The notes below the pieces were generated by a model. That model had not been told where the DNA came from, made no database searches, and worked only from the letters and a program-made list of their open reading frames with translations. The position numbers and the translations under genes were made by a program. Below are positions 3,091 to 21,856 of a stretch of DNA of 64,000 nucleotides, in pieces (the first letter of the stretch is position 1; the number at the start of each line of letters is the position of its first letter). Origin of the DNA: Candidatus Thalassarchaeaceae archaeon (GTDB taxonomy: Archaea > Thermoplasmatota > Poseidoniia > Poseidoniales > Thalassarchaeaceae); contig JBJLBO010000001.1 in NCBI GenBank assembly GCA_045568115.1, forward strand, positions 82,213-146,212, written 5' to 3'.

Positions 3091-3266
3091 ATATGACCTG
3101 GCCCTATAATATCAAGCGCTCTTGCTTGACTTATGATGGTGATGGAGCGTCGTTCGGACACAAATTAGAATTCGTAATTAATAAGCCACCTCATAATACT
3201 GGAATAATAAGTTTGGATTGATTCTATAGCGTTCAATAATCTAGTCATTTATTTAATCTATAGAGG

Positions 3267-4115
3267 TTGTTTCAAGTTGTGTATCCCTTCGGCTCTACTG
3301 ATTGGATGAGTCTAGAGATTACACATCTTGGTAGTGGCAGCCGAGGAAATTCAGTTCTATTGCAATCAGATGAGGCAAAGATCCTCATAGACTGCGGTTT
3401 CTCACTCCGGCAGATTGAATCTAGGTTAGCGAAAATTAATGTCTCGGGCGATGAAATAGATGGGATCTTTGTGAGTCATCATCATGGTGATCATTCAAAG
3501 TCTGCAGTACGGGCATCAAAAAAGTGGGAAGCAAGGCTATATTCAAATCTAGAGACAGCCATTAAACTAGGAATTAGACCCATTGAGGAGGTCAGAACCT
3601 TCTCCAATCTAGAGAGAATCCAACTATCTTCAGACCTCAGTATTCTTCCTGTTCCCGTCCCTCATGATGATGCAGAAAATGTAGCATTTATTGCAAGTAA
3701 TGGAGATGGCCAGAGAGCCGCAATAGTAACAGATCTTGGTGAGTCCACTGTTGAATTAATGAAGCACCTTCATGGTTGTGAACATATTTCAATAGAAGCA
3801 AATTATGACCTTGGAAGATTAATGTCTGGTCCTTATCCACCCTCTTTAAAGCGAAGAATCTCGGGGCGCGGTGGGCATTTATCAAACGAACAAACTGCAG
3901 ATATATTATCTGAAATATGCCACCCAAATCTTTCTAGCATTGTTCTTTGCCATCTATCTGAAAAAAACAATGCACCACACCTTGCTGAAAGTGAGGTTCT
4001 CATGGAGATTGAAGGAAGGTTCAATGGAGACTTGTCAATCTCTTTACAAGATGGACCTGAATTCTCTCATTGGATTGGACAAGAAGATTCAGTTTCAGTT
4101 AGAAATATAGATTAA
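3267..4115 (+). CDS. MBL-fold metallo-hydrolase (YycJ/WalJ-like beta-lactamase-fold protein); the real start may be the internal Met at 3306 (MSLEITHLGSGS)
   Basis: HxHxDH motif SHHHGDH. Overall colinearity with YycJ-type MBL proteins (LGSGSxGN...HxHxDH...D...H...GHLSNE). Confidence 0.75.
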   Translation: MFQVVYPFGSTDWMSLEITHLGSGSRGNSVLLQSDEAKILIDCGFSLRQIESRLAKINVSGDEIDGIFVSHHHGDHSKSAVRASKKWEARLYSNLETAIKLGIRPIEEVRTFSNLERIQLSSDLSILPVPVPHDDAENVAFIASNGDGQRAAIVTDLGESTVELMKHLHGCEHISIEANYDLGRLMSGPYPPSLKRRISGRGGHLSNEQTADILSEICHPNLSSIVLCHLSEKNNAPHLAESEVLMEIEGRFNGDLSISLQDGPEFSHWIGQEDSVSVRNID

Positions 4116-6643
4116 TAATGACCCATTATTGCTCTATGTACGGCGTTTTGGACATCTTTCATTCGGTCTACAGCACCTAATTCTCTGAAAACAGTTAGTG
4201 AACGTTGGAGATAATTCATTCTGGCCGAACGGTCTGACTCAACTTCACCCAAACGGGCTAGTAATTCACCCTGAAGTAGACGGAAATCATTTGCTTCTGC
4301 AACAACAAGACCATCGAGATAATGTTCTGCTGCCTCAGATTTTCTACCAACGTCACTCAGAACTTGTCCTAGAAGAATCTCGACCTCTACTGCACTATGA
4401 GGATCAGTTGCTTCTGAGAGAATCTCGAGGGCTGCAGAATAATGAAGAAGGGCGAGGTCATTATCCTTAATTTTAGCATAATATCTACCTAATACGGCCC
4501 TACTGCGAGCATGCAAAGATTCCTGATCATTTTCCTTAGTCTCATCATGAGCAGTCATTGCATGGTCTCTAGCTCTATCTAACTCATCCATTTCAAGGAA
4601 GGCAGCAGCTAACCTAATCCTTGCGTCCATTAACTCTGGATTCATCTCTACATCTAATAATTCTTCAACATTGCCGTACACTTCTAGAGCATGTCTAGTA
4701 TCTCTGCGTCTTCGGAAAATATACCCCATATTGATGTATGATTTTGCTGCACCAACCGCGTCTCTGCTAGATACCTGTATTTCCAGAGCTTGACTATGTA
4801 AGGCTAGGGCATCATCCATGGCACCGCGCTTTACTGCAATATCAGCACGTGCTGATAGCAAACTTGCAAGTCTGGAAATTTGCTTGTTCTTTCGTGCAAT
4901 TGGAATTGCGGCATCATATTCCTTTTCTGCCTCATCCCATCGCCCTTGTATAGATAGAATATCGCCTCTTAATTCTCGTATGAAACCCCAATTTAGTGGT
5001 TCAAATCCATCTGAATCGAGTCCTCGAAGGATTCCTAATAATTCTGTATGACCAGCCTTAACTAATCCACTACCTTCTTCCATTAGAACTTCGGCAAGTT
5101 GATCATAATCATTTGAAGCATCAAGATGGTGAATGAACTCTATCTTCTCAGCGGCAGAATTACTTCTTTTTCTATACCACTCAACCGCATTAGAATGAAG
5201 TTCCATCTTGAGAGAATCATCCATTGATCTAACTAAGAATTCTCTGACTAAATCATGCACATCATAATTTTCAGAATCGACACGGCGGGCGAGGCCTTTC
5301 TCTACCAATTCATCTAGAAGGTTAATATCAGCATTAAGTCCACTTAATGATTCAAGAGGCATGGGTTCCCTAAATACAGCGATTGCGCCCAATAGCCGCT
5401 TTTGCGAACCTGATAGTTTGCTAAAAATTTCTTTCTCAACAAATGCCTCTAAAGTGGCGTGGAAGGTCTCGCCAACGCTACCTCTATTGATTAGTTCTAG
5501 AACTAAAGGATGGCCTCGAGATAGTGTGTAAATATGCAAGAATTGTTGTAATTCAATATCTGGCATTGCTGACAGTATCTGTCTGCTAGAATCCTGATCA
5601 AGACCTTCTAACGGAATAAAGTGGGTTAACAAATTTCCTGAAGAGTCATTCTCGGGGACAATCATCCTAAATGAACGAGTGAACATTGCTAAACCAAATT
5701 CATCAGACTCAGGTACTTTGATTGCAATGGCCCTTAATATTGCAAAGAGGTTTTCATCAGCAACCTTGTGTAAATCATCAATGACAATTAATGCGGGAGA
5801 ATTATTCAGTCCTTCGATTAACATATTGGCTACAATTGTTGCCTGAGGGACTGCAGAAGATGAGATATAGTCGCCTAAATCACTACTACCAATCATTGAT
5901 AGCCATTCTGAGCAAGTCTCTAGAAAGGCTCTAGACCCTTCCCAATCTTGACATCGATGATACAGAAGATTACGACGATGTGTAAATCTTTCAATTAATT
6001 TCGCTGCTAATGCAGTCTTTCCAATTCCAGCAATTCCAGGAACAAGAAGTGTTGTGGAGCCGGCTTCCAAAATTTTAGCCATCTTTGAAATTTCATCCTC
6101 ACGCCCGTAAAATCGGCGGAGACGCGGTAAATCATTTAGTGAACTAACTAATTGTTTCTCAATATGTTTTGATAAATCTCTCTCAATTAAATCAGGAGAA
6201 AGTGAAGACAAATCAATAGTTCCGCTATCATCGATATAACGAAGAATGTCTACATGTCTGAGAGGCAACTCTGTAATTTGTAATGCTAATTGCAATTCAA
6301 CCATTTCAGATCTACCATCTGGATGGATTATTTTTACTGGTTGCTCACTTACTTTAGACCAGATTTGATCAGCTAGTTTAACACCCTCTGCAGTTAGAAA
6401 GTATGCTTTCCTCTTCCTTGAAACTCCAGACACATGGGCCTGCCTCTCAATAAGATGACCGGTTTCCTTCATGCCTGAAATTGCTCGGGGAACATTTGAC
6501 CTTGCAATAGCTACGGCATTAGCAATTCCCATTTGCGAAATAGCAAATGGAACTTCCACCTTGTCGGCATAATCAGCATAGTCTCTAAGATGAAGAAGAA
6601 TCCTTTCCTGAACCCCTGGTCGAGGCACAGCCATGCTAGTCAT
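4112..6643 (-). CDS. STAND-class P-loop NTPase with N-terminal winged-HTH (MarR/ArsR-like) and C-terminal TPR-like repeats; putative signal-transducing regulator
   Basis: Walker A GIAGIGKTALAAK and Walker B ALIVIDDLH in the middle of the protein. N-terminal about 100 aa looks like a wHTH. C-terminal third has repeated TPR-like A/L/Y-rich helices (AAKSYINMGYIF..., LGRYYAKIKDNDLALLHYSAALEI). Confidence 0.65.
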   Translation of the reverse strand: MTSMAVPRPGVQERILLHLRDYADYADKVEVPFAISQMGIANAVAIARSNVPRAISGMKETGHLIERQAHVSGVSRKRKAYFLTAEGVKLADQIWSKVSEQPVKIIHPDGRSEMVELQLALQITELPLRHVDILRYIDDSGTIDLSSLSPDLIERDLSKHIEKQLVSSLNDLPRLRRFYGREDEISKMAKILEAGSTTLLVPGIAGIGKTALAAKLIERFTHRRNLLYHRCQDWEGSRAFLETCSEWLSMIGSSDLGDYISSSAVPQATIVANMLIEGLNNSPALIVIDDLHKVADENLFAILRAIAIKVPESDEFGLAMFTRSFRMIVPENDSSGNLLTHFIPLEGLDQDSSRQILSAMPDIELQQFLHIYTLSRGHPLVLELINRGSVGETFHATLEAFVEKEIFSKLSGSQKRLLGAIAVFREPMPLESLSGLNADINLLDELVEKGLARRVDSENYDVHDLVREFLVRSMDDSLKMELHSNAVEWYRKRSNSAAEKIEFIHHLDASNDYDQLAEVLMEEGSGLVKAGHTELLGILRGLDSDGFEPLNWGFIRELRGDILSIQGRWDEAEKEYDAAIPIARKNKQISRLASLLSARADIAVKRGAMDDALALHSQALEIQVSSRDAVGAAKSYINMGYIFRRRRDTRHALEVYGNVEELLDVEMNPELMDARIRLAAAFLEMDELDRARDHAMTAHDETKENDQESLHARSRAVLGRYYAKIKDNDLALLHYSAALEILSEATDPHSAVEVEILLGQVLSDVGRKSEAAEHYLDGLVVAEANDFRLLQGELLARLGEVESDRSARMNYLQRSLTVFRELGAVDRMKDVQNAVHRAIMGHY

Positions 6644-6703: not shown

Positions 6704-9700
6704 TCACTCAACATAATCTGGGTCGGGAATCCATTCTTGCTTCTGAGAGTCCCATAACCAACCGGGATGTTCTGAGGATTCTCCAACATCTTGTTCAGAT
6801 TCCCCTCCTGAGACTTCCTCTTCGAACTCCTCATCATTTTCAACTTCCAATGAAACTAATCCAGAAAGGTAAAGTCCAGCTCCAATTAACACGATTACCA
6901 CAATCGCAATAATTCCAATTACAGAAATATCCATGCCCTCGCTCTTTATTGACGGAGATATTGGAGTGCCTTCGATTGGAGATGAGCCACTAACCGAGAA
7001 AGTAGGGGCAATAGTTTTTGTAATCATTGAACCTGGAATTCCAATTATCCAAGTTGAATCATTACTAACCACAGTAGAATTTACCTGAATGCCGCCCAAC
7101 TTGACAGTTATCGCTTTCCCAGGAAGTCCTGTCCCTGTAAATACAGCAACTTCATCCGAAGAGAAAGTGGTCTTTTCTGGTTCATTAACTGTGAAAGACA
7201 TTGCCACAATTTCAAAGGATACTGGAGAAGAAATTTCTTTCGAGCCATGCTCATCTGTAGCTACAAATATCACATTATCAAGGGCCCAATTTGCCATATT
7301 ATCGTCATAGAAACGCATTGAGACCGGATCAAATACAGTCTCACCGTCAATTCCTACATTGATTACAACTCCGAACAGATCGTCAGCAGTACCCTCCACT
7401 CCATCATCGTATACAGATACGTAGAGATTTTCTATACCATCTAAGTCATCAAAATAATCGTACAAATTGAATCGAGCCTTTGTACATTGATCAAGAGATT
7501 GTGAATCAATTTCGCAATACAGAGTGTGCTGAGAAACCCAATTCGAATTGTCAAATGTTGGCTGATTATTATTTATTATCAGAGGATTGTCGGCAGTAAT
7601 CTGAATCTCCAACCAATCACTATAATCATAACCATCGTACGACCTTACTCTAATGTCATATTGATGATTATGATCCATATACATTCCAGAGTTCCATTCT
7701 AATATCCAAGAATCATCACTTTCAATATCGCTAACTACTCCATTGTAAACAATAATATTTCCATCTGTGACATCTATTACTTCTATATCCACTCTAGTAA
7801 TTTCTCCATCAAAATCAACAGCTGCACCCTCAATCGTTGTCAGTGGACCTGCAGAGTAGATTTGTCCATCCTGAGGAGAAATGAGGCTGACATATGGCGC
7901 AGAATTCCTATTATCAATTGTCAAGTCAATAACTACCGGAGTGCATTCATCAATTACGCCTAAACAGAAATCAGAGTCTGAAGCCCAAAAAAGGAATGAA
8001 TAATCAGATGATATCCTCGGCATCCCAGAAAAGTCCCATGACCAAGACCACTGAGTCCCACCCTCGGTTTCAGTTACAACGTGATAGTTCGGGCCTTGAA
8101 TTTCAACAAAAATACTAGAGATATCGACTCCACAGTTTGAAGGACATCCATACGAATCCTGAGCAAAACCGTCAAAGTTCACTACACCATCTGAATGTGT
8201 TGAACCCGAACTTGGAGAATTTACACTAATCGCTGGAGCAATTGTGTTCAATTTTATGGTGACACTGATGGTATCTGAGTAAACTAAACCATCAAATGAT
8301 CTAACCTGAAATGTGTAGTCGCCTTCTTGCATATTACTCATATCAATCTCGTAAGACCAACTGCTGAACGGATGATTATTTCTTGATACATGACCAAACT
8401 CAGAACCACTTGTATCTGTAGCAATTCCGGCTTGGCTCCATTCACTAGTAAGTGGATCCTTGACTTCAACAGAGTGGACATAACCTTGTTGATCCCACTG
8501 AGCGAGTTCGTCATTTTCGTAAATCCCTGCCCATTGACCATCAAAAGCAGATCCAGTCAGAGAAACTATTCTCCTAAACGATTTGCCATCATCTTGAGTT
8601 ACTGAAATTGAAGGAGGGAGGTTGACTAATGAAATGGTATCTTGATATGTTTGATCGGAGAGAGTGAATTGCCCCGAATCATAACCAAAACCAAATTTAT
8701 ATGCAGTAAATCTGTAAAGTGATAATTCCCGAGTTCCTGCCGAATGATCACAGTCGGGATCATCAGTATCTAGTAGTAAATCTCCATCATTATCTTCACC
8801 ATCAGAACACGAATCTTCATATTCATCATCTGCAAATCCATCGGGATTGTCTCCCCCTTGAAGTCCTCTAAAGTCAAGATGGAAATTCGAGGCTAGGGCA
8901 AACCACGGAGTATATCCGTCACTATCAGTTTCAAGACTGTAAAGATCATTTCCTAGAGCATCTTCGATCAGAATATTAGCATCCTCAACCCTTTCACCAT
9001 TAACAAGTGTTTGGAATCTTACTAATTCAGCTCTCTGAACTTGGACTGAATATTTAGTAGGTTGAGTGTTTATCTTTATATGAGACAAACTAATCTCTCC
9101 CGATAGATTTGAGAACGTGAAAACAGTAGAATTGTTGTCCATGTTCAAAGCCAATGGGAAGTCTCTTGGAGTATAATCAGGACAAGAGGCACATGCCTTG
9201 ACTTCAGTAGGTATAATTCCATTCTGCCAATTGTTCCCATAATGTGCTTCCTGATCATCCCAACTCAAAATCACAGGAGATTCCCCAGACTGTGGTGTAG
9301 AGATATACTCGGATTGCACTGTAACCGAAGATTTGGAAACATTATATGTTACGTCAACACCATTCCATTCATTATTAGAAAAGAATGCTAATGTCCCATA
9401 CTGCTGTGAACCAGCCTGACCATTGTTGTAATGCTGAAGAATCGCGCCGACACCCGATACATTGAATTCGTTCCGTCTAACATCTAAGATTCCGCCAGTC
9501 GATCTTATGGCGCCGGCTTCTCCAGTTGCACTTATCGCATTGTCGACTATTGTCGCTCCGGTTCTATGGACCATTATGGCAGGACACGGGAAATTCCCAC
9601 CCCACCAAGCATTACTCTGACAAACACTTGAACCATCCATCTCAATTGTGTTATTTGCGAAGTACAGGCGAGCGATACTAGGGGAACCGCCACTGCCATA

Positions 9701-10948
9701 TCTTCCTGCCACAACAGGTTCACGGCCCGTTTGCAGAATCGTATTGTTCTCCGCAACGACATCATATTCATCGAATAACCAAAGGCCATTCCAACCATCG
9801 ATTGGCCCAATTGTATTATTGTGAATATTTGCTATTGAACCCTTAATTGCAATTCCGGAACTATCTCCAGATCCTGAAATCTGATTATTATTTATGTTTA
9901 CAAGCGCATTATCATAGCCAGTTATTCCAGCACCTTCTATGGTTTCAATCAAATTATTTTCGATTTCGACGGTGTATTTTGCCCCACCAACAGATTTCGC
10001 ACCATAAACGTCAATCCCATTACAATTTACGTTAAACGTTACATTAGATACGACTCCGGCAGAACTTCGAATACTAAATCCATAATCGCCACTAATTACT
10101 GCAGAGTCCTCAATCCGAATAAAAGTCTCAGAGGCCCAAATCGCTGAACGTCCACCATCTCTCTGCCCGCATCCATTGTTTGTACTTTGGAAGTGTGAAT
10201 CTCGGAAAATCATAGGAGAAATTGGAGTTCCACCGCCATAAACTTGCACTGCTTGGCCGGCAACATCATTCTCTACGTCATTCCCAGCAATATAATCTCC
10301 ACCTAAAAATATAGGCTGAGCGAGATTAGTTGCTAGAACACTTGATGTTGCAATATTTTCGAAAGTCATCTCTTCCAATGTTGGACTAGCTCCATCAAGA
10401 ATTAGTGCTGCAAATTTATACTGATTTACAAGTTGGACATAAAATGGAATCCCCCAAGCACCTTGAAAGTGTAAATGCTGCATTCCAGACTGTGAAAGAT
10501 CCATTGAATCACGGAGAATAATACCCTCGCCACAAGAAGGATCTTCAATCCAAACCTTATTGCTTCCAGAACCTAACCCATAACATTCACCAGTGGCGCT
10601 TTCATTTTCGGGTTCTTGCCAATCTAGCAAGATAAAAGAAGATTGATCTGCATTAGAACTGGCTCCACAAGCTTGGAGACCAGCACATAGATTCCCACGT
10701 ATATCAAGAGATGTCCCATTAGGGAAGGAGATAATAGAACCCGGTTCTATTATCAGCTTAGCACCAGGAGATACTGTTACATCGCCTGTTAACTGATGTT
10801 GGCCACTCCAGACCTCAGTTCCTGTGATTGTACCGCTAGCAGTCTCATTTGCTGCCATTACTGGATAGGTGGGCCCTAATAGGGCCACCATAGTACTAGA
10901 AATCATCAGAAAAACAAGCATCTGACTTCGTGTTCTATCACCGAACAT
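6704..10948 (-). CDS. Cell-surface protein with right-handed parallel beta-helix (pectin-lyase-fold) repeats, N-terminal signal peptide, C-terminal TM anchor and acidic cytoplasmic tail; rich in N-x-S/T sequons
   Basis: Signal-like N-terminus MLVFLMISSTMVALLG. Repeated NNTI/NNQISGSGDSSGIAIKGS.../IHNNTIGPIDG beta-helix motifs. TM ISVIGIIAIVVIVLIGAGLYL followed by an ~55-aa acidic tail. Confidence 0.6.
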   Translation of the reverse strand: MFGDRTRSQMLVFLMISSTMVALLGPTYPVMAANETASGTITGTEVWSGQHQLTGDVTVSPGAKLIIEPGSIISFPNGTSLDIRGNLCAGLQACGASSNADQSSFILLDWQEPENESATGECYGLGSGSNKVWIEDPSCGEGIILRDSMDLSQSGMQHLHFQGAWGIPFYVQLVNQYKFAALILDGASPTLEEMTFENIATSSVLATNLAQPIFLGGDYIAGNDVENDVAGQAVQVYGGGTPISPMIFRDSHFQSTNNGCGQRDGGRSAIWASETFIRIEDSAVISGDYGFSIRSSAGVVSNVTFNVNCNGIDVYGAKSVGGAKYTVEIENNLIETIEGAGITGYDNALVNINNNQISGSGDSSGIAIKGSIANIHNNTIGPIDGWNGLWLFDEYDVVAENNTILQTGREPVVAGRYGSGGSPSIARLYFANNTIEMDGSSVCQSNAWWGGNFPCPAIMVHRTGATIVDNAISATGEAGAIRSTGGILDVRRNEFNVSGVGAILQHYNNGQAGSQQYGTLAFFSNNEWNGVDVTYNVSKSSVTVQSEYISTPQSGESPVILSWDDQEAHYGNNWQNGIIPTEVKACASCPDYTPRDFPLALNMDNNSTVFTFSNLSGEISLSHIKINTQPTKYSVQVQRAELVRFQTLVNGERVEDANILIEDALGNDLYSLETDSDGYTPWFALASNFHLDFRGLQGGDNPDGFADDEYEDSCSDGEDNDGDLLLDTDDPDCDHSAGTRELSLYRFTAYKFGFGYDSGQFTLSDQTYQDTISLVNLPPSISVTQDDGKSFRRIVSLTGSAFDGQWAGIYENDELAQWDQQGYVHSVEVKDPLTSEWSQAGIATDTSGSEFGHVSRNNHPFSSWSYEIDMSNMQEGDYTFQVRSFDGLVYSDTISVTIKLNTIAPAISVNSPSSGSTHSDGVVNFDGFAQDSYGCPSNCGVDISSIFVEIQGPNYHVVTETEGGTQWSWSWDFSGMPRISSDYSFLFWASDSDFCLGVIDECTPVVIDLTIDNRNSAPYVSLISPQDGQIYSAGPLTTIEGAAVDFDGEITRVDIEVIDVTDGNIIVYNGVVSDIESDDSWILEWNSGMYMDHNHQYDIRVRSYDGYDYSDWLEIQITADNPLIINNNQPTFDNSNWVSQHTLYCEIDSQSLDQCTKARFNLYDYFDDLDGIENLYVSVYDDGVEGTADDLFGVVINVGIDGETVFDPVSMRFYDDNMANWALDNVIFVATDEHGSKEISSPVSFEIVAMSFTVNEPEKTTFSSDEVAVFTGTGLPGKAITVKLGGIQVNSTVVSNDSTWIIGIPGSMITKTIAPTFSVSGSSPIEGTPISPSIKSEGMDISVIGIIAIVVIVLIGAGLYLSGLVSLEVENDEEFEEEVSGGESEQDVGESSEHPGWLWDSQKQEWIPDPDYVE

Positions 10949-11043: not shown

Positions 11044-12267
11044 TTATTGCTCTAATTCGAATCCAACATTTTCAGACCATCTAACGACATTTAATTCGCC
11101 ATATCCATTTTTCAGGTCATGAGAAGAATCAGAATTCATAGCAGAATTTGCTAGGGCACGCTTAACAAGAAACATCCCCTCTTGATCAATTTCTCCATTA
11201 TCGCCACGAAGTTTTTCACCATGAATTTCAAGAATTATTGCTAAAGCTGATGATACAAGAACCGTTGAATCCGAAGTCCCACTAGAATAAGCATAAGATG
11301 GTTTTATTGATGTAGAAACCGTCGAAAAAATCATCACACCTGGTGCTGTCACCTCTGGCTTTTGATTTGGATATTGGCGAAGTTCTCCGGTACTAGGATC
11401 CTGTTCTGAACCCATTGAACTATTTCTCCATACTTCACCGTTTCTTGTTGTCGCACCAACTGCAATTACGCGCTCAATATTAGCAGGAGTAGATACATCA
11501 CTAACCGAAGATTCAATTCCATTATTTCCTGCAGCAGCCACAACAAATACTCCTGCATCCAGTGCTTCATTAACGGCCACTGAAGTTTCAGACTCAAAAC
11601 CTCCTGTACTTCCATCTGGATCACCTCCAAGACTTAGGCTGATTATATCGACATTCTGAGAAATCCAGCACCAACGAATAGCACTTGCAACGCTATCAAT
11701 CTGCCCTGCAGATCCATCTGGCCCTAAAGCAATTGCAATTGATACGGAAACTTCGGGTGCAGCACCAACATAGGTACTATTCGCTAACATCAATCCTGCC
11801 ATTTGAGTCCCATGATAATTTTGACCTACATCTCTAACTTCATCATTCTTCTCAACATAAAAATCACGGAAACCCACGAGATTTACTCCAGAAAATTCAG
11901 GATGATTTATGTCAATCCCAGTGTCTACAATGCATACATGTACCCCTTCTCCAAAGTAGCCCTCAGATTGTATTTCTCTAAATCCTGAATTTTCATAGGC
12001 CCACTCTGAGTCAGGTAGAATCGGAGCAATATAGGCTTGTATCCAGGGCCATGAAATAAGCAGTAAAATAGTTCCAATTGAGAACGACACTGCACCCCAA
12101 GGCCAAAGAAATTCTTTCATCTGACCTACTGGCCATCTCAACTCCCTAGCTTCTTGATCACTGATCCCATAGGCAGCACCAAGATAACCTGGTGCATCGG
12201 GGTCAACTGCAGTCAGAAGCCTAGTGTCTTCAGGCTCTGGCATCAACTCAAGATGTTCTATGACCAT
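11044..12267 (-). CDS. Subtilisin-like serine protease (peptidase S8) with N-terminal signal-anchor
   Basis: Catalytic-triad contexts HVCIVDTGID (Asp), HGTQMAG (His), GTSDST-like Ser region. TM FLWPWGAVSFSIGTILLLISWPW near the N-terminus. Confidence 0.75.
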   Translation of the reverse strand: MVIEHLELMPEPEDTRLLTAVDPDAPGYLGAAYGISDQEARELRWPVGQMKEFLWPWGAVSFSIGTILLLISWPWIQAYIAPILPDSEWAYENSGFREIQSEGYFGEGVHVCIVDTGIDINHPEFSGVNLVGFRDFYVEKNDEVRDVGQNYHGTQMAGLMLANSTYVGAAPEVSVSIAIALGPDGSAGQIDSVASAIRWCWISQNVDIISLSLGGDPDGSTGGFESETSVAVNEALDAGVFVVAAAGNNGIESSVSDVSTPANIERVIAVGATTRNGEVWRNSSMGSEQDPSTGELRQYPNQKPEVTAPGVMIFSTVSTSIKPSYAYSSGTSDSTVLVSSALAIILEIHGEKLRGDNGEIDQEGMFLVKRALANSAMNSDSSHDLKNGYGELNVVRWSENVGFELEQ

Positions 12268-12322: not shown

Positions 12323-15300
12323 TCAGAATGGAGCACCGGGTCGTCGGGAACCGCCCCTTGTAAGATACCAACCCGCTAGAAGAAGCATTGCAACAAGAAC
12401 CCACATAATTGAACTAGTAGCAGTAGAGTCATCTACTGCTGGAGATTTCATAGTATACCTCTTTGGATCAAATTTATCAGATTCCTCGTTGACATCATCG
12501 CCCTCTAGGATAAAATCAACCCAAATATCATCAGGTTGGTCGAATGAAGTCATATCAAGATCTATGAAAACGAACTCTTCATTTCCAGCAGCAACATCTA
12601 CGGTTCTCGTAGTATTTATCGAAGTTCCTCTAATTGTAGCATTTACAGTGATTTGAGAAGCATCAACTAAGCCATTATTCTCAACAGTAACAATGAATGA
12701 ATTATACTGACCAAAGATGACATCAGAAGAAGAAACATCTGTGATTTCGGGATTTGGTAAGGATGTTTGCACATGAATAGGGATAGCTGGGTAACTACCT
12801 CCATTCTTATCTGTCACAGATACGCTAATTGTGAAATCCTCGTCTCCAGTCGCATTAAGAGGTGCTTTCACCTTAACTGTATGAGTCGTATCGGAAAAAG
12901 CACCCAAAGTATGGCTTGTAGAACCGGTCCTAAGCCAATTAGTTGGTAATTGACTATCATCAAATTCAAACTCAAACTTTTCATCACCGTTTCCGGTATT
13001 GGTAAACATAATTGGGATTTCTAATTCCTGCCCAGGTCGTATTCCATAAACTTCTAGCATTTCCTCTGTTAACTCAAATCCATGATGTTGCGGCACTCTC
13101 AATTTCAACTCGTGCTGGACCATATATCCGTCCTGTGAGCTGAATTTGATTGCAACCATATGTCCGTCAGATAGAGACCGGGCAGTAGACCAATTTGCAG
13201 GCTCAATTCTAACCTTGAGTTCCAAAGAAGTATTATCATTTTGTAGACCTAAGTTGAATGAGAATTGATTCTGCCATGACTCTCCTGTACTATTGTAGAA
13301 ACTTACATTCCAAAAATCGCCATCAGATCCAGGGACACTGCCTAATACTGAATATGTAGAAACAGTTTCGTGGCCTAGATAATCTAACAAGATTGTGAAC
13401 TCAACAGGGGTGTATTCTTCATCAATAAACAATATTTCTACATCTGAAATATCTCCATCCGATGCATTTCCACCAATCATAACAGTAGTATGTGTGTCAA
13501 TCTCATGGCTCGAACTTCGAGTGAAAGTAAGTTCATTGCTTACGGATGCAATGATACCAGTACTTGAAGATGGAATATTGATATTATTTGCTGCTTCATA
13601 ACTCATATCCCTATCCATTTGAGGCGACAGGAACTCACTATTTATTTCAGCAGAACCTGATGGCAGAAGAATTGAGAACCCTCCACTATCATCTAATATT
13701 GCATCCCACTCAAGACCATTACCAAGCGAAATTGTGAATTCAAGCTCAAAGACACCTTCAGAAGATAGATTATGAGATGAACCATCATAATCAATCCATT
13801 GAGAGACTAAGTCTAACCATCCTCCAAAGATAAGTTCAGAATCAACAGAACCACCTTCAGAAATATCAGCATCAACAATAGACATTGCTACAAGATTCAA
13901 ACTTTCTACAGAAGCTGAGATAATCCACTCTCCTGGCTCAACGGATGCATACCAAGCACCGTGCCAAGCACCATTTTCCATTACTAGTGTTGGAGTTACA
14001 CGATCCCTAACCAATCCCTGAGTTGGAATTAATTCCAGAACAATTTCAGAAGCAAAATCGTGGATATTGGAGTGTGTAATGTTTCCAAATATCTCAACTT
14101 GTCCTGCTGTAAGCTCAATTTCAACAGAGTTTGGTGCACTCATTGATATTGATTCACTCTCGTCTGAAAACCCTAATCTATTGGTTAAAACAAGCCAACT
14201 TGTGTTCACTGGGACATAGACATTCCAATCTCCAGCACTATCAGTTACTAAAGAAATATTATCTAAGCCATCACTAGTCATTATTACAGTAGCATTAGGC
14301 ACCCCTTCACCTACATCGGCATCATCATCGTCATCATGATCCCAGAAAATAGTCCCCGACATCTCAACCAATGTTGAAACAGACAAGTTTATCTGACCAT
14401 TCTGGCCTCTTTGTAGACCATCTTGAATAAGTTCTATTGATTCAACTAAGTATCTTGTTCGTTCAACTGTTTGGTTAACTTCAACATTCCACGAACCAGG
14501 ATAAAGGATTCCCTCAGAAAGACCTGATGCATCAGATAAATCGAGATGGACTTTACCAAGTCCTTCATTTGACGTTAAAGTAATATCCAAATTATCAACT
14601 GGGTTATTTTCCTCATCGGACATAAGCACTGTGAATGTTGCCATCTCACTTGTAGAAAGAGTGTGGTTCAGGTTAGCATTTGCCTCGGAGACTGTAAGTA
14701 ATGTACGCAACCCTTCCTCTACACCTTCATCTGAAGTAATTGAATCAATAACAACAATCCATTCACCCTCTGGAAGATGGTCTATGATTGAACCACTGGA
14801 ATCTGTTACTCGAGAAAGAATCCATCCAGTTTCTGAATTAATAAATTTGACATTCTGACTGACTAATTCAGAGCCTACATAATCTGTAATATTCAGACTG
14901 ACTCGCCATTCAGGTTCAAAACCGATATATCTAGATACGGAATCATCGGAGAAGCCAACATCGACACTTGTATCTCCAGTGAGTATCATAGTTCCAAACA
15001 ATTCATACAATTCTGGATCTGACAATTGAACGTCAATCCTGTAAGAGCCTGCCTCTATTGGAACCAAAGCATGCCCGAAGGAAGTCCAAACTAATTCATC
15101 AGAAGAAGAGATATTGTAATCCATACCTGCGTTGTTTAGTGATATTAATGAGAAATCATATTGCACAGGAGAACCATTACTAACATTATTGTCGCCACTG
15201 TAATCAAGGAAGAAATCAATTTCAACGTAAGAATTTTCAGGGAATGAAAGCAAATCGATAGTATCATTCTCGCCATCAACAATTAGGTGAGTTTCTGAAA

Positions 15301-18300
15301 TATTAAGCCAAGTCACATCTGTTGTGAAGGACCATTCACCAGGAGGTAGATCCGAGCTGAATGTACCATCTTCAAGTAATTCCATTACCCATATTGCCTC
15401 ATAAGTATCATGTGTCGCGAAAACAGTAGTGGGTTCCCAACCAATAAGATCGGAGGAGAATAAATTTCCGACTCTATTGACATTGATTGCGCCATTGACT
15501 TCGAATCCAGATTTAGCAACCATACTGATGTTTTCCATACCATCAGTAACGGTAAATCTAGTACCATTGACTTTATTCTGAACTCCAGCAAAAACGAAAG
15601 CATCTACGGTGACACCAATTGGTAATTCTACGTTGAATACTCCTTCGCTACCAGTAGTAGTAGTTGTAGAAAATCCATCCCAATAAAACTCAACGGTTCC
15701 GCCTTCAATAGGAACTAAAACACTGGTCTCTTCTGTTTCATTTGTTTGTACATTAATTGCTTCTTCAATTGATTCGTACTCAACTGACCCAGTCACAGTA
15801 GTAGATTCATGGAAAGTGAAATTATATTCAGAATCGGACTCAACAACAATTCTCTCCCAAAGTTGCATCATGGAATCGGATATATCTGAACTCAATACCC
15901 ATTCGCCTTCAATTAATTCAACATAGTAATGTCCATGCTCTGAATCATAAATTGCTATAACATCAGAATTAGAACCATCAACACTAGTCATTGTAACGTT
16001 AGCATCGATGACATTTACCTCTGTACCATTATCCATCCTGTCAAGATTGAAAGAAATGTCGTAAGTAACGGGTATTGGGGTTGGGAATTCAACAGAGGTT
16101 CCTTCCTCAGCGTCGAACACATGAGATATTTCGGCTTCACTGAAGCCATCCGAATCCATGTCTAGAACTACTGTGTAGTTTCCAGGAATAACAGGCCCAT
16201 AGCTGAACAAACCAGAATCGTCAGAAGAAATTGTGCAAGGAGCGAAGTAAACTTCTGAGCACTCACCATTTGTAATTACCGTGGTGTTATTAGCATGATA
16301 TAAGATTACAGAATCGACTAAATTATTACCATTAGAATCAACTAGCGTACCGTTAACAAATCCTCCAGATACATCAATCTCATTTGGAGCTATAGTACCA
16401 GAATATGGCACAGTGAATCCATCAAGAATATCAATCTTAGAGCCATCAGAAAATACAACTGAGACATCATATTTACCAGGAATAGCGCCCATAAGATGGA
16501 AAGTGCCTTCATTGACCATCTCTCCACTAAAGTGTCCCTCTCCACTAAACATTCCAGTTCCATTTATTGTACCATATGACTCTAGTGAATCATCACTTGA
16601 ATCGACTACAAATATCCCCGAGCCAGAAAGAGAGGAACCATTCAATGTCTGTGTAAAAGACGAGGTCCCATTGGATGTGAACTTTCCAGTAGCATTCACG
16701 ATTCCCTCAATTAGGTAATTATCTAATGATAATGAACAAATGCTGTGATTTTCAAGCATTGTTCCATTTTGGTTACAATTTTCGACTTCAATGGTGTCAT
16801 CAATTGTACCCACTAGTGTCCCGATTCCATTGAATTCACCATCTCCAGAAAGGCTGTGGCCATTGAGGATATTTTGTGTATATGTACCAACAAAATTTTC
16901 AATTGTTGCAATTTCTGTTGTTGTCACAGAGCCTGCGCCGGTAAATGTGACCTCACCAGAACCTTGGAATGTCAAATCAGAACCAGAAACTGTTCCCGTA
17001 GATGTTTCGAGAGTAATTGGAGGAAGAGAAATTTTATCCCATGAAGGAGATAATTCTACAACTGCGTTTGTGATAGCTTCTCCTGAAAATTGATCATGGC
17101 CATCCCATGTTAATAGTCCAGTTGCAAACGATGGCGCCACAAGTATGTCTGCATCAATATGGGATTCGCCATTACTATGACCATCTAAGCCAGATATATT
17201 GACTATTGTTTCCGCTAACCACTGTGAGCCGGAAACGTTTCCAAGGATTCCTGTTATTGGATTTATGCGACGTTCATCTGAGTAAGATTCTGTGGCGACA
17301 TCTTGTAGCATCCCCACTGACCCACCAGATAACTGAGATCGTGCAATGTCTAAATCAGGTTCACCAAAGAAAGCACTAACTCGAATTTTTCCAGCTGGAG
17401 CAATAAAGGAGTAAGCGCCGTTTTCATCCGCATCTACTGTACCTATTGGGATCCAATAAGTTCGCTGATCTCTATCAATTACATTTCCATCAGCATCAGC
17501 AATTTCTTCGCCACTAAAGGCATCTCTCTCTATTAAGATACGAGCGTTAGGGATTGGTCCTATTCCATCTAATTCAACAGTTCCTTCAATAGTCGCACCA
17601 CTGTAGTACTTGACAACCTTGACATTAGTATTTGCACGTCCAATTGCTGAGTACCCACCATCAAAGACATCCGGGATGCTGTTATTATCCTCATCAGGAG
17701 AATCGGAACCATCGTCATACCAATTTGCAATTACGAAATGATTCATCATTGCTCCAGGGAGTGGATATGCATTCTGAAGAGCTGAATTTGGAGTTCCAGT
17801 TGTACCCCAAGTAGGACCGGGTTGCACCACATCTCCAGATAGGCCTAAACTAGTACTGCCATAACCAACGTAAATTCTAGCAATCATTGTTTCGAAGAAG
17901 TCTTCAGTATGAGTGTATCGTATATCATTTAGACGTATGATTTGAGAGGAATCAGTTAGAGAACCTGATTGTTGTGCAACGATATCGGCCAAGTATGCTT
18001 TTTCATATGCTTCAGCGGACATTATTATTTCTGGATCAGAGCCTTTCTGAGTAATATATTCAGAAATCATATAGTCATTTGGATCAAGGCCAGACAAAGT
18101 AGTTGGCGCATAGAAAATCCCTGTAGTTTGGCCACGGTGATAACTTGAATCCTCGTAATACTTTCCACCTAGAGGATACAATCTGTCATCTACTGCGAAA
18201 TAACGGATATCATTAGTTCGAACTATTGTCTCGCCTGTTTGTCCCTCATAATCCTGTACCTCATACTCTATAGAAGTGCTCAAATCATGATAAAGATCCA

Positions 18301-21300
18301 CGATTTGATCAAGTGATAGAATCGTATTCAAGAATAAACGTGACAAGGCAAGGCGAGAATTGGCTCGGTGGAGGTGAGTGGAGATATCATCGAATTCTTC
18401 AATTAAGTCACTAGTATACCTATAATCTCCTATGTAATAGTGAGATATATCAAAAGAAATATCTTGGATGTTTTGGCACCGACCACCTGTCGATACAAAA
18501 GATGCGGCATCACATGGTAATGAATCGTTAAATGAATTCCTTGCAGCAGACTCATCATTCGTTTTGTTCCCAATTATAATACCGTTTTCTGTAACTTGCC
18601 AACTTGGCTCCATTGGAAGTCCATTCGAATCTATTTCAGAACCATATAATATCTCTAGAGAAACTGATTCACCAAATTGATTCACACCAGCAGCATGCGA
18701 ATATACAGCCAATGAGCGTGCTTCAACGAAAGAAGAGTCACCCATTCCGTAAGACATTATTGCTTCAAACTCACCTTTCTGCTCCTCAGTCATATATTCA
18801 TCAAGTATTCCTGAGAATTCATTCGTGAAGCCTGAGTCTGATTGATCATAACTCCTGTCGCCTTGAGCAAGGGTAGTGATGAATAAGGCAAGCGTATCCT
18901 CCTGACCAGAGGACAGTAACATACCTCCACTTTGTGGAATCCCTGTCTGGAAGTTATCTGCTACAGTTGGATGTTCTCCTGAATCAAGAGCTTGGAAACC
19001 ATAGTCCCACCATGAAACAAATGCAGGACGATTACCAAAGGGAACTTCAGAGTCCTGCTCAGATAGCCACTCATAGGCTAAATTCCATCCTCCGCCATTG
19101 AAACCAGGGCCAAATGTCCCCATGTACCAACAACCGTTTCCACATGATTCCGAGGGATTATGGTCAGAACTATCGAATAGAGAAAGACCTAAGGCCTCAT
19201 ATCTAAATATATCAGGAGTGAAATCATAAATGGTTTGGTCAACATCACTCGATGCAGTTTCTCCTCTAGGAATTCCTGAATCCAGCCCATAAGTTAGATG
19301 CTGAGAAGCAATTAACATGAAAACAAGCATTAATGCAGGAATCATTGGATGCTTCTGGCTAGCAGGACGAATTGAATTGAAGCGAGTACGCGGAGTACCA
19401 ATACCTGATCGGCGCCACTCCTTGACAAAGCCAGAGAAATTTGCCATCTTCCATAAAGACGAAATTCCTAGAGCACCTACTATTGCAATAGCAGGTGTTG
19501 CATTGAAGATAAATCGACCTGCAGACCATGCCATATAGATGGATATCAGAACCCAAAGACCAAGAAGGGATTTACCTTGTTTTTCATCTCGAGCCCCTCT
19601 CCAGAGAAGTATGAATGAATAACCCACTGCTATGAGAGCAACTACGGGTCCGTATGAAGCAAATAAAACCCCGCGACTAGGTGCCTGTGCTTCACCAATT
19701 GTTCCAAAAATCTTGTTCTTTGAGAAATAGAATCCACCGGTAAACAAAATGTCCCAGCCATCATAAATCTCTGCTTCTTGGAGTATCCATAGAATTGAAA
19801 GAATTCCTCCAAATAGAGCAATTCCACTACCTAGAATCAACAACCAAGGTTTATCTCGGAAAGAACAAGAAACCCATCCGAGAGCAAAGGTGAATCCTAC
19901 AATGTAAAACATTGGTTGGAAACCACTAGGAGCCATAAGAAGATTCATCTCAGGCCATATGTAGAATGGTAATGGCATAATGAATGTAGTTAGCATCATC
20001 TGCAAAGCTACAGAAGTCAATGGGAGGCTGTCCCTCCTGCGGAACATATTAAGTAGAATTTGGACTGAAAATGCAAGAAAGAGAATTCCTGGACCGTAAA
20101 CAAATCCTTTCCAACCTAGTGCAACAGTTGAGAAACTAATTCCAGCCAAAGTTGCATTTGCCATCGATTGAGGATTTCTGCGCCACATCTCTCGTATTCC
20201 TGCAATCAAATACAGTGGATTTGGGCTTGGATTTATGAAAAGCCTCTCATTACTAATTTTATCAATTGCAGTAACCCAGAAGTAAAAGGCTAGCGTAAGG
20301 AAAAGTAGAGCAAATGAATCGTGATCTGCAAGAGCAAATGTGGAATGACTAATGTGTCCTGGCATTAAAGCCATTAACCAAGCAGCTATAATTCCAGCCT
20401 GATTACTGTGCAAACGACGAGAAAGCCCAGATACAGGTAGGACAATCAAGGCACCAAATATAGCGGGGAATAACGCTACTGACCACCAAACTGACTCATC
20501 AGTTGACATTCCAGTGACCCACTCAATTGCGATTCCTCCAAGAGCTAAACACCAAGAGAAAAGAGGGGGTCGTGGATTAATTCCACCCATAGGATAAGCT
20601 CTATCTGCATCAAAAATCAAATGTGTTTGATTAGCTACTATGTAGTCGACTACCCGCTTCATGTACCAAGGGTCAGAACCCCCAGTCATATCCCACAAAC
20701 CAGTAATATTAGCATTCATTGCTGGAAGAACATTCCATCCGGTTCGAACTAAGAATCCGACTATCAAGGCAGAACCAACTAGTATGGAATAACTGTTGGC
20801 TTGCCACCATTGTCTAAACTTACTGGGTTCCCTTCGCGGAGAAATATCACCGAAATAACCTCTTGAAGCTATTAATGCAGCACCGACATTCAACCAAAAG
20901 GTTAGGCCAAACCATGTCCAAGTGCTAGCCGTATCGTTATTACCAAGGAATGTTAGACTAGTAGGTAGGTTGTTTCCAATCTCCACTAGGTGTGCCATTG
21001 TATAAATCACCCAGTTTATTGCAACAATAGATCCGATTACGTGCCATCTTTCAGTTCTACAGAATGCGACAAAAAGAATCACAATTGATGTTGCTAGTGC
21101 CCAGACAGAACCTAGGTAATGATGAGACTCGAATATATCAGCTTCAGTAATTCCTGAAAGCCATAATACAGGGACTAGATTTACAACAAATAGACTGATA
21201 GACGTTGCAATAAATTCTGTACTGGTTTTCCACTCAATAGACTCAGGAATTGCTGAAAATAGATTGTTTTTCCCTGATTCATCCAAATATCCACGAAATA

Positions 21301-21856
21301 GTATTGTTAGGATAGTCCCTAAAACTATTGAAAGGATCCAGAATGCGAAGAAATTCGCCCCTATTCCGGCTCTCTGAATATCGATTAATTGATTACTCTG
21401 CAAGACTGCTTCCTCGGCAAGAGATAGCTCTGGCATCCCTGCAGCATAAGATACTGCAAGATGGAATCCAACTACAATAGATAGCAAAATAGTAGCTTCT
21501 TCATTCCGATTAGCTTGAATCAAGAATGTTGTAGAAATACCCATGAAAGCAAAGGTCGAAATTACAATCGGATCGACCAATGAAAAGAAGTCCATTACCA
21601 CGGCCACAGCAACAAAAGCGAATGAATAAACTAAGAATTTGTTTGGTGTTGCAATTATTCCAATCCTTCCCAAAGCAGCTGCAGTAGCAGCTGCAACGGG
21701 GAGGACGACTAACTTTCCAATATCAATCATCACATCGTCAGCGAAGGCAGTTACTCCAAAGAACAAGACCAGAAGTCCTGCAAGTACCAAAGGAGCTGTT
21801 GCGACACTCTTCATTGAGTTCGCAGCGGCCTCCGCATTTCCTTTTTCATACGACAT
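12323..21856 (-). CDS. aglB: Giant (3177 aa) AglB/STT3-type oligosaccharyltransferase fusion: extra N-terminal polytopic membrane domain + STT3 core + ~1900 aa of CarboxypepD_reg/Ig-like beta-sandwich repeats + C-terminal TM
   Basis: STT3 signatures: the WWDYG motif inside PAFVSWWDYGFQ, and the EL1 DPWY motif inside SDPWYMKRVVDY, which resembles the eukaryotic STT3 motif EFDPWFNYR. More than 20 predicted TM helices lie in the first ~880 aa. Downstream are repeated DADGNxxxRDQRTYWIPIGTVDADENGAYSFIAPAGKIRVSA-type CarboxypepD_reg-like units. C-terminal TM IMWVLVAMLLLAGWYL. Confidence 0.7.
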   Translation of the reverse strand: MSYEKGNAEAAANSMKSVATAPLVLAGLLVLFFGVTAFADDVMIDIGKLVVLPVAAATAAALGRIGIIATPNKFLVYSFAFVAVAVVMDFFSLVDPIVISTFAFMGISTTFLIQANRNEEATILLSIVVGFHLAVSYAAGMPELSLAEEAVLQSNQLIDIQRAGIGANFFAFWILSIVLGTILTILFRGYLDESGKNNLFSAIPESIEWKTSTEFIATSISLFVVNLVPVLWLSGITEADIFESHHYLGSVWALATSIVILFVAFCRTERWHVIGSIVAINWVIYTMAHLVEIGNNLPTSLTFLGNNDTASTWTWFGLTFWLNVGAALIASRGYFGDISPRREPSKFRQWWQANSYSILVGSALIVGFLVRTGWNVLPAMNANITGLWDMTGGSDPWYMKRVVDYIVANQTHLIFDADRAYPMGGINPRPPLFSWCLALGGIAIEWVTGMSTDESVWWSVALFPAIFGALIVLPVSGLSRRLHSNQAGIIAAWLMALMPGHISHSTFALADHDSFALLFLTLAFYFWVTAIDKISNERLFINPSPNPLYLIAGIREMWRRNPQSMANATLAGISFSTVALGWKGFVYGPGILFLAFSVQILLNMFRRRDSLPLTSVALQMMLTTFIMPLPFYIWPEMNLLMAPSGFQPMFYIVGFTFALGWVSCSFRDKPWLLILGSGIALFGGILSILWILQEAEIYDGWDILFTGGFYFSKNKIFGTIGEAQAPSRGVLFASYGPVVALIAVGYSFILLWRGARDEKQGKSLLGLWVLISIYMAWSAGRFIFNATPAIAIVGALGISSLWKMANFSGFVKEWRRSGIGTPRTRFNSIRPASQKHPMIPALMLVFMLIASQHLTYGLDSGIPRGETASSDVDQTIYDFTPDIFRYEALGLSLFDSSDHNPSESCGNGCWYMGTFGPGFNGGGWNLAYEWLSEQDSEVPFGNRPAFVSWWDYGFQALDSGEHPTVADNFQTGIPQSGGMLLSSGQEDTLALFITTLAQGDRSYDQSDSGFTNEFSGILDEYMTEEQKGEFEAIMSYGMGDSSFVEARSLAVYSHAAGVNQFGESVSLEILYGSEIDSNGLPMEPSWQVTENGIIIGNKTNDESAARNSFNDSLPCDAASFVSTGGRCQNIQDISFDISHYYIGDYRYTSDLIEEFDDISTHLHRANSRLALSRLFLNTILSLDQIVDLYHDLSTSIEYEVQDYEGQTGETIVRTNDIRYFAVDDRLYPLGGKYYEDSSYHRGQTTGIFYAPTTLSGLDPNDYMISEYITQKGSDPEIIMSAEAYEKAYLADIVAQQSGSLTDSSQIIRLNDIRYTHTEDFFETMIARIYVGYGSTSLGLSGDVVQPGPTWGTTGTPNSALQNAYPLPGAMMNHFVIANWYDDGSDSPDEDNNSIPDVFDGGYSAIGRANTNVKVVKYYSGATIEGTVELDGIGPIPNARILIERDAFSGEEIADADGNVIDRDQRTYWIPIGTVDADENGAYSFIAPAGKIRVSAFFGEPDLDIARSQLSGGSVGMLQDVATESYSDERRINPITGILGNVSGSQWLAETIVNISGLDGHSNGESHIDADILVAPSFATGLLTWDGHDQFSGEAITNAVVELSPSWDKISLPPITLETSTGTVSGSDLTFQGSGEVTFTGAGSVTTTEIATIENFVGTYTQNILNGHSLSGDGEFNGIGTLVGTIDDTIEVENCNQNGTMLENHSICSLSLDNYLIEGIVNATGKFTSNGTSSFTQTLNGSSLSGSGIFVVDSSDDSLESYGTINGTGMFSGEGHFSGEMVNEGTFHLMGAIPGKYDVSVVFSDGSKIDILDGFTVPYSGTIAPNEIDVSGGFVNGTLVDSNGNNLVDSVILYHANNTTVITNGECSEVYFAPCTISSDDSGLFSYGPVIPGNYTVVLDMDSDGFSEAEISHVFDAEEGTSVEFPTPIPVTYDISFNLDRMDNGTEVNVIDANVTMTSVDGSNSDVIAIYDSEHGHYYVELIEGEWVLSSDISDSMMQLWERIVVESDSEYNFTFHESTTVTGSVEYESIEEAINVQTNETEETSVLVPIEGGTVEFYWDGFSTTTTTGSEGVFNVELPIGVTVDAFVFAGVQNKVNGTRFTVTDGMENISMVAKSGFEVNGAINVNRVGNLFSSDLIGWEPTTVFATHDTYEAIWVMELLEDGTFSSDLPPGEWSFTTDVTWLNISETHLIVDGENDTIDLLSFPENSYVEIDFFLDYSGDNNVSNGSPVQYDFSLISLNNAGMDYNISSSDELVWTSFGHALVPIEAGSYRIDVQLSDPELYELFGTMILTGDTSVDVGFSDDSVSRYIGFEPEWRVSLNITDYVGSELVSQNVKFINSETGWILSRVTDSSGSIIDHLPEGEWIVVIDSITSDEGVEEGLRTLLTVSEANANLNHTLSTSEMATFTVLMSDEENNPVDNLDITLTSNEGLGKVHLDLSDASGLSEGILYPGSWNVEVNQTVERTRYLVESIELIQDGLQRGQNGQINLSVSTLVEMSGTIFWDHDDDDDADVGEGVPNATVIMTSDGLDNISLVTDSAGDWNVYVPVNTSWLVLTNRLGFSDESESISMSAPNSVEIELTAGQVEIFGNITHSNIHDFASEIVLELIPTQGLVRDRVTPTLVMENGAWHGAWYASVEPGEWIISASVESLNLVAMSIVDADISEGGSVDSELIFGGWLDLVSQWIDYDGSSHNLSSEGVFELEFTISLGNGLEWDAILDDSGGFSILLPSGSAEINSEFLSPQMDRDMSYEAANNINIPSSSTGIIASVSNELTFTRSSSHEIDTHTTVMIGGNASDGDISDVEILFIDEEYTPVEFTILLDYLGHETVSTYSVLGSVPGSDGDFWNVSFYNSTGESWQNQFSFNLGLQNDNTSLELKVRIEPANWSTARSLSDGHMVAIKFSSQDGYMVQHELKLRVPQHHGFELTEEMLEVYGIRPGQELEIPIMFTNTGNGDEKFEFEFDDSQLPTNWLRTGSTSHTLGAFSDTTHTVKVKAPLNATGDEDFTISVSVTDKNGGSYPAIPIHVQTSLPNPEITDVSSSDVIFGQYNSFIVTVENNGLVDASQITVNATIRGTSINTTRTVDVAAGNEEFVFIDLDMTSFDQPDDIWVDFILEGDDVNEESDKFDPKRYTMKSPAVDDSTATSSIMWVLVAMLLLAGWYLTRGGSRRPGAPF

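Follow-up and report, generated by a model that had tools for sequence, protein, structure and literature searches.

A giant AglB/STT3 gene in a Thalassarchaeaceae archaeon

The stretch of DNA analysed here (the window) is 64 kb of contig JBJLBO010000001.1 from a Candidatus Thalassarchaeaceae archaeon, and its reverse strand carries a gene for an oligosaccharyltransferase (OST) of the AglB/STT3 type whose product is 3177 aa long. The gene lies at 12323..21856 (-), stop codon included, starts with ATG and reads through 3177 codons with no internal stop, so that the single continuous open reading frame (ORF) of the original prediction is borne out. It is by a wide margin the longest ORF of the window, and its product, hereafter the giant OST, is three to five times the size of a usual AglB. 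N-glycosylation has a single universal enzyme, AglB/STT3, which in archaea is regarded as a simple protein of one subunit and ~600-1050 aa. The enzyme binds a dolichol-phosphate-linked glycan and transfers it en bloc; its active site faces outward at the membrane surface, where the WWDYG pocket binds the N-x-S/T sequon.

The catalytic core consists of an STT3/GT-C domain of the type with 13 transmembrane (TM) helices, residues 346-860 (19277..20821, -), followed by an enlarged extracellular AglB C-terminal globular domain, residues 861-1380 (17717..19276, -), which holds a poorly conserved insertion at ~1001-1200. The Pfam STT3 profile (PF02516) matches residues 371-653 (E 2.7e-20; 73.7 bits against a cut-off of 24.5) and was found in all 15 homologs scanned with Pfam. 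A sequence search of the PDB gave matches to AglB and STT3, the best solved relative being A. fulgidus AglB-L (3waj), a Foldseek search matched the STT3 core at E 1e-8, and the 13-TM GT-C fold can be superposed on solved AglB, STT3 and PglB. The NCBIfam profile TIGR04154 (archaeo_STT3) aligns over residues 361-985 with 168.8 bits, and since this is below its cut-off of 450 the giant OST falls outside the archaeosortase A system-associated subfamily, though it is related to it.

We scored the catalytic motifs in an alignment of the giant OST with 112 full-length homologs (113 sequences; one multiple alignment took 59 full-length homologs). The first acidic motif, GGSDPWY, with the catalytic D395 in external loop 1 (residues 392-398; 20663..20683, -), is invariant in 113/113 and pairs with GGNDPWY of A. 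fulgidus AglB-L. The second, DXD-type acidic motif D511-H-D513 (20318..20326, -) is equally invariant and pairs with the NDHH region of 3waj. T719-I-G-E722 (19691..19702, -), which we take from established knowledge of STT3/AglB to be the TIXE/SVSE motif of external loop 5, keeps its T, I and E in every sequence; it sits in a flexible inter-TM loop, and the AlphaFold2 (AF2) confidence score (predicted local distance difference test, pLDDT) is low for residues 698-734. The sequon-binding motif W949-W-D-Y-G953 (18998..19012, -) is invariant in all 113 sequences and pairs with the WWDYG of 3waj, and R781, within the invariant stretch AGRFI, is also fixed across homologs. Two of these motifs had been singled out in the original prediction: the WWDYG in AFVSWWDYGFQ, which lies at residues 945-955, and the DPWY in SDPWYMKRVVDY (residues 394-405). 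The latter had been placed near residue 375, whereas the catalytic Asp is D395.

Ahead of this core stands a lineage-specific module of 10 TM helices, residues 1-345 (20822..21856, -), with its N-terminus predicted in the cytoplasm from its helices and the distribution of positive charges. Hydropathy shows ~10 hydrophobic segments before residue 335, and AF2 places helices at 2-38, 51-69, 74-90, 96-114, 118-140, 154-187, 213-234, 250-268, 272-292 and 309-331, mostly at pLDDT ~80-93, followed by the long TM1 of STT3 at 346-379. Lys and Arg alternate between the loops exactly as the positive-inside rule demands of a protein with a cytoplasmic N-terminus, and the most basic loop is the one ahead of STT3 TM1 (5 K+R in the giant OST; family mean 4.4). 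Ten helices bring the chain back to the cytoplasm, as STT3 TM1 requires. Since residue 15 of 3waj aligns to residue 362, ~345-360 residues truly precede the canonical TM1, so that the ~360 aa of additional helices that had been predicted are real.

The module matched nothing in Pfam even at E<=1 and no PDB sequence (best E 0.47). A profile search of 1.84 billion representative proteins recovered it only as the N-terminus of proteins of 3146-3230 aa and in short matches, and the four short matches that we checked by BLAST are contig-end fragments of giant OSTs. The existence of shorter natural forms made of the module plus STT3 could also be discarded, as the matches of 948, 996, 848 and 557 aa stop in mid-domain and are contig-end fragments. 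An origin by duplication of the STT3 TM segment or by internal duplication was rejected as well (hhalign probabilities 0.2% and 0.4%). Without relatives or duplication by Pfam, PDB and hhalign, the module is an orphan private to the giant OST family.

On the other side of the core, residues 1420-3140 (12437..17599, -) form an acidic, sequon-rich array of beta-sandwiches of transthyretin/CarboxypepD_reg-, CnaB- and Ig/CARDB-like types. An all-beta ectodomain is thus real, but at ~1720 aa it is shorter than the ~1900 aa first proposed. In the part covered by the AF2 models, which stop before residues 2381-3177, 55% of the beta region is strand and 3% helix, and the domains were likened to the transthyretin-like domain of carboxypeptidase D, the CnaB/pilin domains of Gram-positive adhesins, DUF3823 and the stalk of Sulfolobus SlaB. 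Further along, hhalign ties windows starting at 2390-2665 to the modelled beta domains, and weak Pfam matches to NPCBM_assoc, CARDB, DUF11 and Big_1 were found over 2760-3100. CarboxypepD_reg (PF13620) falls just under its threshold in the giant OST (31.9 against 32.3 bits) and reaches E<=0.01 in 14 of 15 homologs (best 2.8e-18). Recent tandem repeats were rejected, as hhalign paired only 7 ectodomain windows at 81-95% probability. Since the domains are only weakly alike in sequence, the CarboxypepD_reg/Ig-like repeats of the original prediction are repeats in the structural sense only and not in sequence, and these comparisons indicate that the domains are old and diverged.

Within the array, a Gly-rich, GxGxF[TS]G-periodic segment (residues 1622-1790; 16487..16993, -) was modelled by AF2 with very long beta strands of up to 42 residues; its Gly and Phe columns are invariant, and it perhaps forms a rigid beta-ribbon or a solenoid-like rod. 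The Cys pairs C1694/C1707 and C1866/C1874 are also invariant. The ectodomain has an isoelectric point (pI) of ~4, and residues 1501-3140 of the giant OST contain 40 N-x-S/T sequons where ~21 are expected from composition. Across the 113 sequences the ectodomain mean is 38 against 19 expected (z ~5), with several conserved positions, N1553 and N2227 being invariant; in the same sequences the catalytic globular domain showed no sequon enrichment.

The chain ends with a TM helix at residues 3147-3165 by hydropathy (12362..12418, -), where a terminal helix had been foreseen, and a basic tail predicted to be cytoplasmic, TRGGSRRPGAPF (residues 3166-3177; 12326..12361, -), with a nearly invariant end, ..RRxxAPF. 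All divergent relatives have a hydrophobic stretch near the C-terminus, those at 32% identity still finish with a helix, a basic stretch and [PR]F, and dN of the tail against a 92%-identical relative is 0. The ..RRxxAPF-COOH end may serve for docking or sorting in the cytoplasm; among the window's ORFs of at least 150 aa it is peculiar to the giant OST. A PGF-CTERM signal was considered and rejected, as the C-terminus, ...STATSSIMWVLVAMLLLAGWYLTRGGSRRPGAPF, has no PGF before the helix and the family conserves instead the extreme end ..APF.

Adding up the modules, the predicted topology gives 10 + 13 + 1 = 24 TM helices in a single polypeptide, both termini in the cytoplasm and ~2300 residues outside the cell after TM13. 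With these ~2300 residues external and the last helix back in the membrane, the ectodomain would form a closed, doubly anchored arch. The positive-inside loops of the 10-TM module, the known N-in/C-out topology of STT3 and the basic C-terminal tail are the basis of this assignment, which supports the proposed anchoring at both ends.

Conservation across the order

A search for homologs across 5.8 billion proteins yielded at least 120 clusters, nearly all with a length of 3145-3340 aa and with 97-100% of the query aligned at 42-92% identity; more than 110 of them are full-length. Their names include 'uncultured marine group II/III euryarchaeote dolichyl-phosphooligosaccharide-protein glycotransferase', 'STT3 domain-containing protein' and 'Candidatus Poseidoniales archaeon hypothetical protein'. 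In a scan of GTDB with one genome per species, 424 species genomes had a relative of the giant OST, and the best 80 of the 424 are Thalassarchaeaceae (marine group IIb, MGIIb), Poseidoniales or unclassified metagenome-assembled genomes (MAGs) named 'Euryarchaeota/Methanobacteriota/Thermoplasmatota archaeon'. Among the assemblies are single-cell genomes (AG-404-A19) and a 1.6-Mb long-read contig. The closest relatives of the window are genomes of MGIIb genus O1, with 81-83% core identity. At the ~50 loci with sufficient flank the ORF is complete, 3145-3320 aa long, and ends in APF. Even the most divergent relatives, at 32-40% identity, are full-length and collinear (3146-3194 aa; where named, Poseidoniales or Euryarchaeota archaeon), and the gap fraction does not exceed 0.13 anywhere along the alignment.

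To measure selection we used a JGI contig that is 92% identical and aligns without gaps over all 3177 codons. The ratio of nonsynonymous to synonymous substitution rates (dN/dS) was 0.20 for the N-terminal module, 0.05 for STT3, the most conserved segment, 0.12 for residues 1001-1420, 0.11 for residues 1421-2300 and 0.17 for residues 2301-3140. Against the more distant GTDB relatives synonymous sites are saturated, with a nonsynonymous divergence (pN) of 0.12-0.31.

Of 83 loci, 80 of which come from GTDB genomes, four have an OST ORF that is broken away from contig ends: in L010 the break consists of masked bases, and those in L035, L046 and L074 are likely frameshifts or assembly errors, with pseudogenes in these lineages a less probable reading. 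These four shorter ORFs are all that speaks for an assembly artefact, that is, for a chimera or a missed stop or frameshift that joined two or three genes. The same ORF stands in ~50 independent species-level assemblies, single-cell genomes and the long-read contig included; the gapless alignment to the 92%-identical relative shows purifying selection in each segment; and, short matches aside, the N-terminal module never occurs alone or on other proteins. The junction between STT3 and the beta region, where a mis-join or missed stop had been feared, is collinear and gap-poor in the 113 full-length sequences. We therefore give an artefact practically no chance, and the comparisons indicate a genuine fusion that is old within the order and has been selected as one unit.

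Neighbouring genes and other genes of the window

The gene order around the giant OST is CDP-archaeol synthase, PurD, giant OST, S8 subtilase, beta-helix/Big_7 protein, AAA_16-TPR STAND ATPase and metallo-beta-lactamase-fold protein. The subtilase (11044..12267, -; Pfam Peptidase_S8, E 6e-41) has an N-terminal TM anchor at residues 53-76. The beta-helix/Big_7 surface protein (6704..10948, -) is 1414 aa long, with a signal peptide and a TM helix at 1341-1359, and measures ~1414-1470 aa across relatives. The STAND (AAA_16) ATPase with TPR repeats (4112..6643, -) is cytoplasmic. The genes for the OST, the subtilase, the beta-helix protein and the STAND ATPase share one strand, with 55-95 nt between them, and their order holds in relatives at 61%, ~45% and 32-36% OST identity (loci L001, L003, L084, L085 and L086 among them), so that the synteny which the original prediction proposed to compare is kept down to 32-36%. 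Spacing and conservation suggest that this block is an operon for surface-protein maturation.

Expression of an aglB gene has been reported from metatranscriptomes for an MGIIb-O1 MAG, where gene 305, 'Glycosylation oligosaccharyltransferase (aglB)', was enriched ~4-fold while the genus O1 was active in transcription (PMC9723583), and where the unannotated gene 307 was enriched ~4-fold together with it (PMC9723583, supplementary file 6). Gene 305, listed without a size, is probably an ortholog of the giant OST. Should the genes be numbered in sequence, gene 307 would correspond to the beta-helix protein, a hint that the two are regulated together.

Other genes of the window are also of note. 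A 940-aa protein (45342..48164, +) with a signal-peptide-like N-terminus and no Pfam match has a classic PGF-CTERM end (PDETPGFGAILGTLAILSAMLVARRRIE), from which it follows that other surface proteins of the organism are handled by the archaeosortase A system. The product of 31708-34461 (+), 917 aa with hydrophobic N- and C-terminal segments, matches Pfam CD36 (PF01130) at residues 58-128 above the gathering score (E 1.4e-9; 37.4 bits, threshold 26.5). Since CD36/LIMP-2 counts as a family of eukaryotes, a match in an archaeon is unexpected. At 39949-43953 (-) a 1334-aa secreted M60-like (enhancin-type) peptidase with He_PIG Ig domains is encoded; peptidases of this type are associated with the degradation of glycoproteins and mucin, which fits the protein-degrading lifestyle proposed for marine group II (MGII). 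Finally, the 1065-aa product of 34424-37621 (+) has two Lamin Tail Domains and, in the same chain, a phospholipase D (PLDc_2) domain.

Proposed role and comparison with known systems

Of the nine features that define STT3/AglB, seven were found, the remaining two being the DK/MI motif and catalytic transfer. The STT3 domain, whose presence had been left to a profile search, is there and looks catalytically intact by Pfam, PDB, Foldseek and motifs, and on the strength of its sequence the giant OST is very probably the active, order-wide AglB of MGII. We lean towards the fuller reading that it is the order's active AglB in the form of a single chain with built-in accessory modules. By the established STT3/AglB mechanism, the enzyme would take a dolichol-phosphate-linked glycan at the outer face of the membrane and pass it to the Asn of N-x-S/T sequons in exported proteins. 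That the added parts are built-in accessory subunits of fixed architecture is more tentative, and we would give it slightly less than an even chance. They would then play the part of the separate subunits of eukaryotic OST or of TMTC-type TPR arrays: the 10-TM module and the C-terminal helix may pack against the STT3 membrane domain, and the ectodomain, itself glycosylated at its conserved sequons, may hold or present large acceptors at the active site, the co-encoded 1414-aa beta-helix protein being a candidate, and embed the enzyme in the glycoprotein envelope. In favour of such subunits, domain number and length have stayed constant at distances where adhesins and stalks normally differ, every part of the chain is under moderately strong selection, the gene belongs to the syntenic core and not to an island, and double anchoring returns the distal domains to the membrane near the enzyme. 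For the protein as a whole, the original prediction had suggested that it may couple glycosylation in space to an extended cell-surface layer.

A bolder version, which we regard as distinctly unlikely, makes the giant OST the single-chain equivalent of an OST holo-complex that is also a machine for envelope assembly. The 10-TM module would handle the lipid-linked oligosaccharide, for example as a flippase or in the recycling or channelling of dolichol-phosphate, and feed the STT3 site; the C-terminal helix would double back and attach to the membrane domain; and the glycosylated arch would capture emerging surface proteins, among them the co-encoded beta-helix protein, which would be matured by the membrane subtilase under control of the STAND ATPase. 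If this were true, the most abundant planktonic Euryarchaeota would have a physical link between translocation, proteolytic maturation, N-glycosylation and envelope insertion.

Several observations weigh against an active AglB with accessory modules. The WWDYG region was modelled at low confidence (pLDDT <50 for residues 907-981), and no clear DxxK or MxxI (DK/MI, the pocket for the +2 Ser/Thr) can be assigned by sequence after it. A second, conventional AglB may still lie elsewhere in MGII genomes, as the search that found no other STT3 gene covered the 64-kb window and 1.58 Mb of MGII loci. We found no relative, by sequence or structure, that gives the 10-TM module a function, and beta-sandwich arrays such as this one are also typical of adhesins and of S-layer stalks.

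The missing DK/MI motif, together with a TIGR04154 score far under the cut-off, could be taken to mean that STT3 is inactive and a mere membrane anchor for a surface protein. Since the four catalytic motifs that could be located do not vary in any of the 113 sequences, and STT3 is the most conserved segment (dN/dS 0.05), a dead enzyme is very unlikely. The typical use of beta-sandwich arrays leads to two other explanations, both of which keep the enzyme. In one, a conventional AglB is joined to a non-catalytic, structural ectodomain, a glycocalyx or S-layer-like stalk or spacer, and the fusion only secures co-localisation and stoichiometry. The pI of ~4 and the sequon enrichment, as in archaeal surface glycoproteins, the strictly conserved length, which would suit a spacer or ruler, the C-terminal membrane anchor and the adjoining cell-surface genes all agree with it. 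Yet there is no sign of a lattice-forming domain, an envelope protein normally far exceeds a housekeeping enzyme in copy number, S-layer proteins are not usually anchored at both ends, and the PGF-CTERM protein elsewhere in the window shows that a more usual route of surface anchoring was available. We consider this explanation unlikely.

The other explanation holds that the ectodomain is an adhesin that binds particles, polymers or cells, unrelated to glycosylation. It would suit MGII, whose lifestyle is particle-associated and polymer-degrading, and bacterial adhesins and pilins are built from CnaB, transthyretin and Ig-like domains; the weak CARDB and NPCBM_assoc matches and the further large surface proteins encoded in the window point the same way. 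Adhesins, however, usually vary in repeat number and evolve fast, whereas here the architecture is fixed down to 32% identity with an ectodomain dN/dS of 0.11-0.17. Moreover, with both ends anchored in the membrane there is no free distal tip, and no lectin or carbohydrate-binding module was found at the curated Pfam threshold. An adhesin is thus quite improbable, and an active AglB with accessory modules remains our favoured reading.

The sequences of giant OSTs have been public for years, labelled STT3 or aglB, and what apparently has gone undescribed, in an enzyme otherwise known, is the conserved architecture with its orphan membrane module. We found no description of the size or architecture of a giant AglB in the full-text literature, a search whose scope did not extend to subscription papers on AglB evolution. 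For the architecture, the statement in the original prediction that no described precedent is known agrees with this search, but the gene itself was already in the databases under the name of an STT3-domain protein. Poseidoniales, still uncultured, rank with the most abundant archaea in surface ocean waters. The giant OST, with the subtilase, the beta-helix protein and the STAND ATPase, provides concrete candidates for the building of their envelope, and the functions of the orphan 10-TM module and of the fixed multi-domain ectodomain can now be tested. The 9.5-kb gene is also probably a single-copy marker, and its conserved sequons can be searched for in ocean metaproteomes.

Described AglBs range from ~590 aa (AglB-S) to ~1050 aa (Haloferax), eukaryotic STT3 and bacterial PglB measure ~700-850 aa, and we know of no described AglB, STT3 or PglB with extra N-terminal helices or a second anchor. 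A. fulgidus AglB-L (3waj/7e9s, 868 aa) shares with the giant OST the GGxDPWY, DxD-type, TIXE and WWDYG motifs. The giant OST is ~3.7 times longer, with a core identity of only ~17%, and adds ten TM helices ahead of TM1, an enlarged C-terminal domain, ~1700 aa of beta-sandwich, a second membrane anchor and a conserved cytoplasmic tail. Other GT-C enzymes with appended domains, the TMTC O-mannosyltransferases (PMT_2 plus TPR) and mycobacterial AftD (6wbx, ~1400 aa, with carbohydrate-binding modules), differ in family, acceptor and the domains appended, are much smaller, and have neither the N-terminal 10-TM addition nor a second anchor at the C-terminus. Sulfolobus SlaB (8qox_B) and the pilins and CnaB adhesins of Gram-positive bacteria, to which no sequence homology of the ectodomain was detected, lack an enzyme domain and are anchored at one end. 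In the eukaryotic OST (STT3A/B, ribophorins, OST48/Wbp1; 6s7t, 6ezn), further TM helices surround STT3, as do lumenal beta-rich domains that are each fixed in the membrane by one TM anchor at the C-terminus. The giant OST carries its extra helices and domains in the same polypeptide, and no homology to OST accessory subunits was detected, so that the likeness is one of analogy. A conserved 24-TM, 3177-aa AglB shows that an archaeal lineage elaborated the enzyme independently, and in cis, to about the size of the eukaryotic multi-subunit OST.

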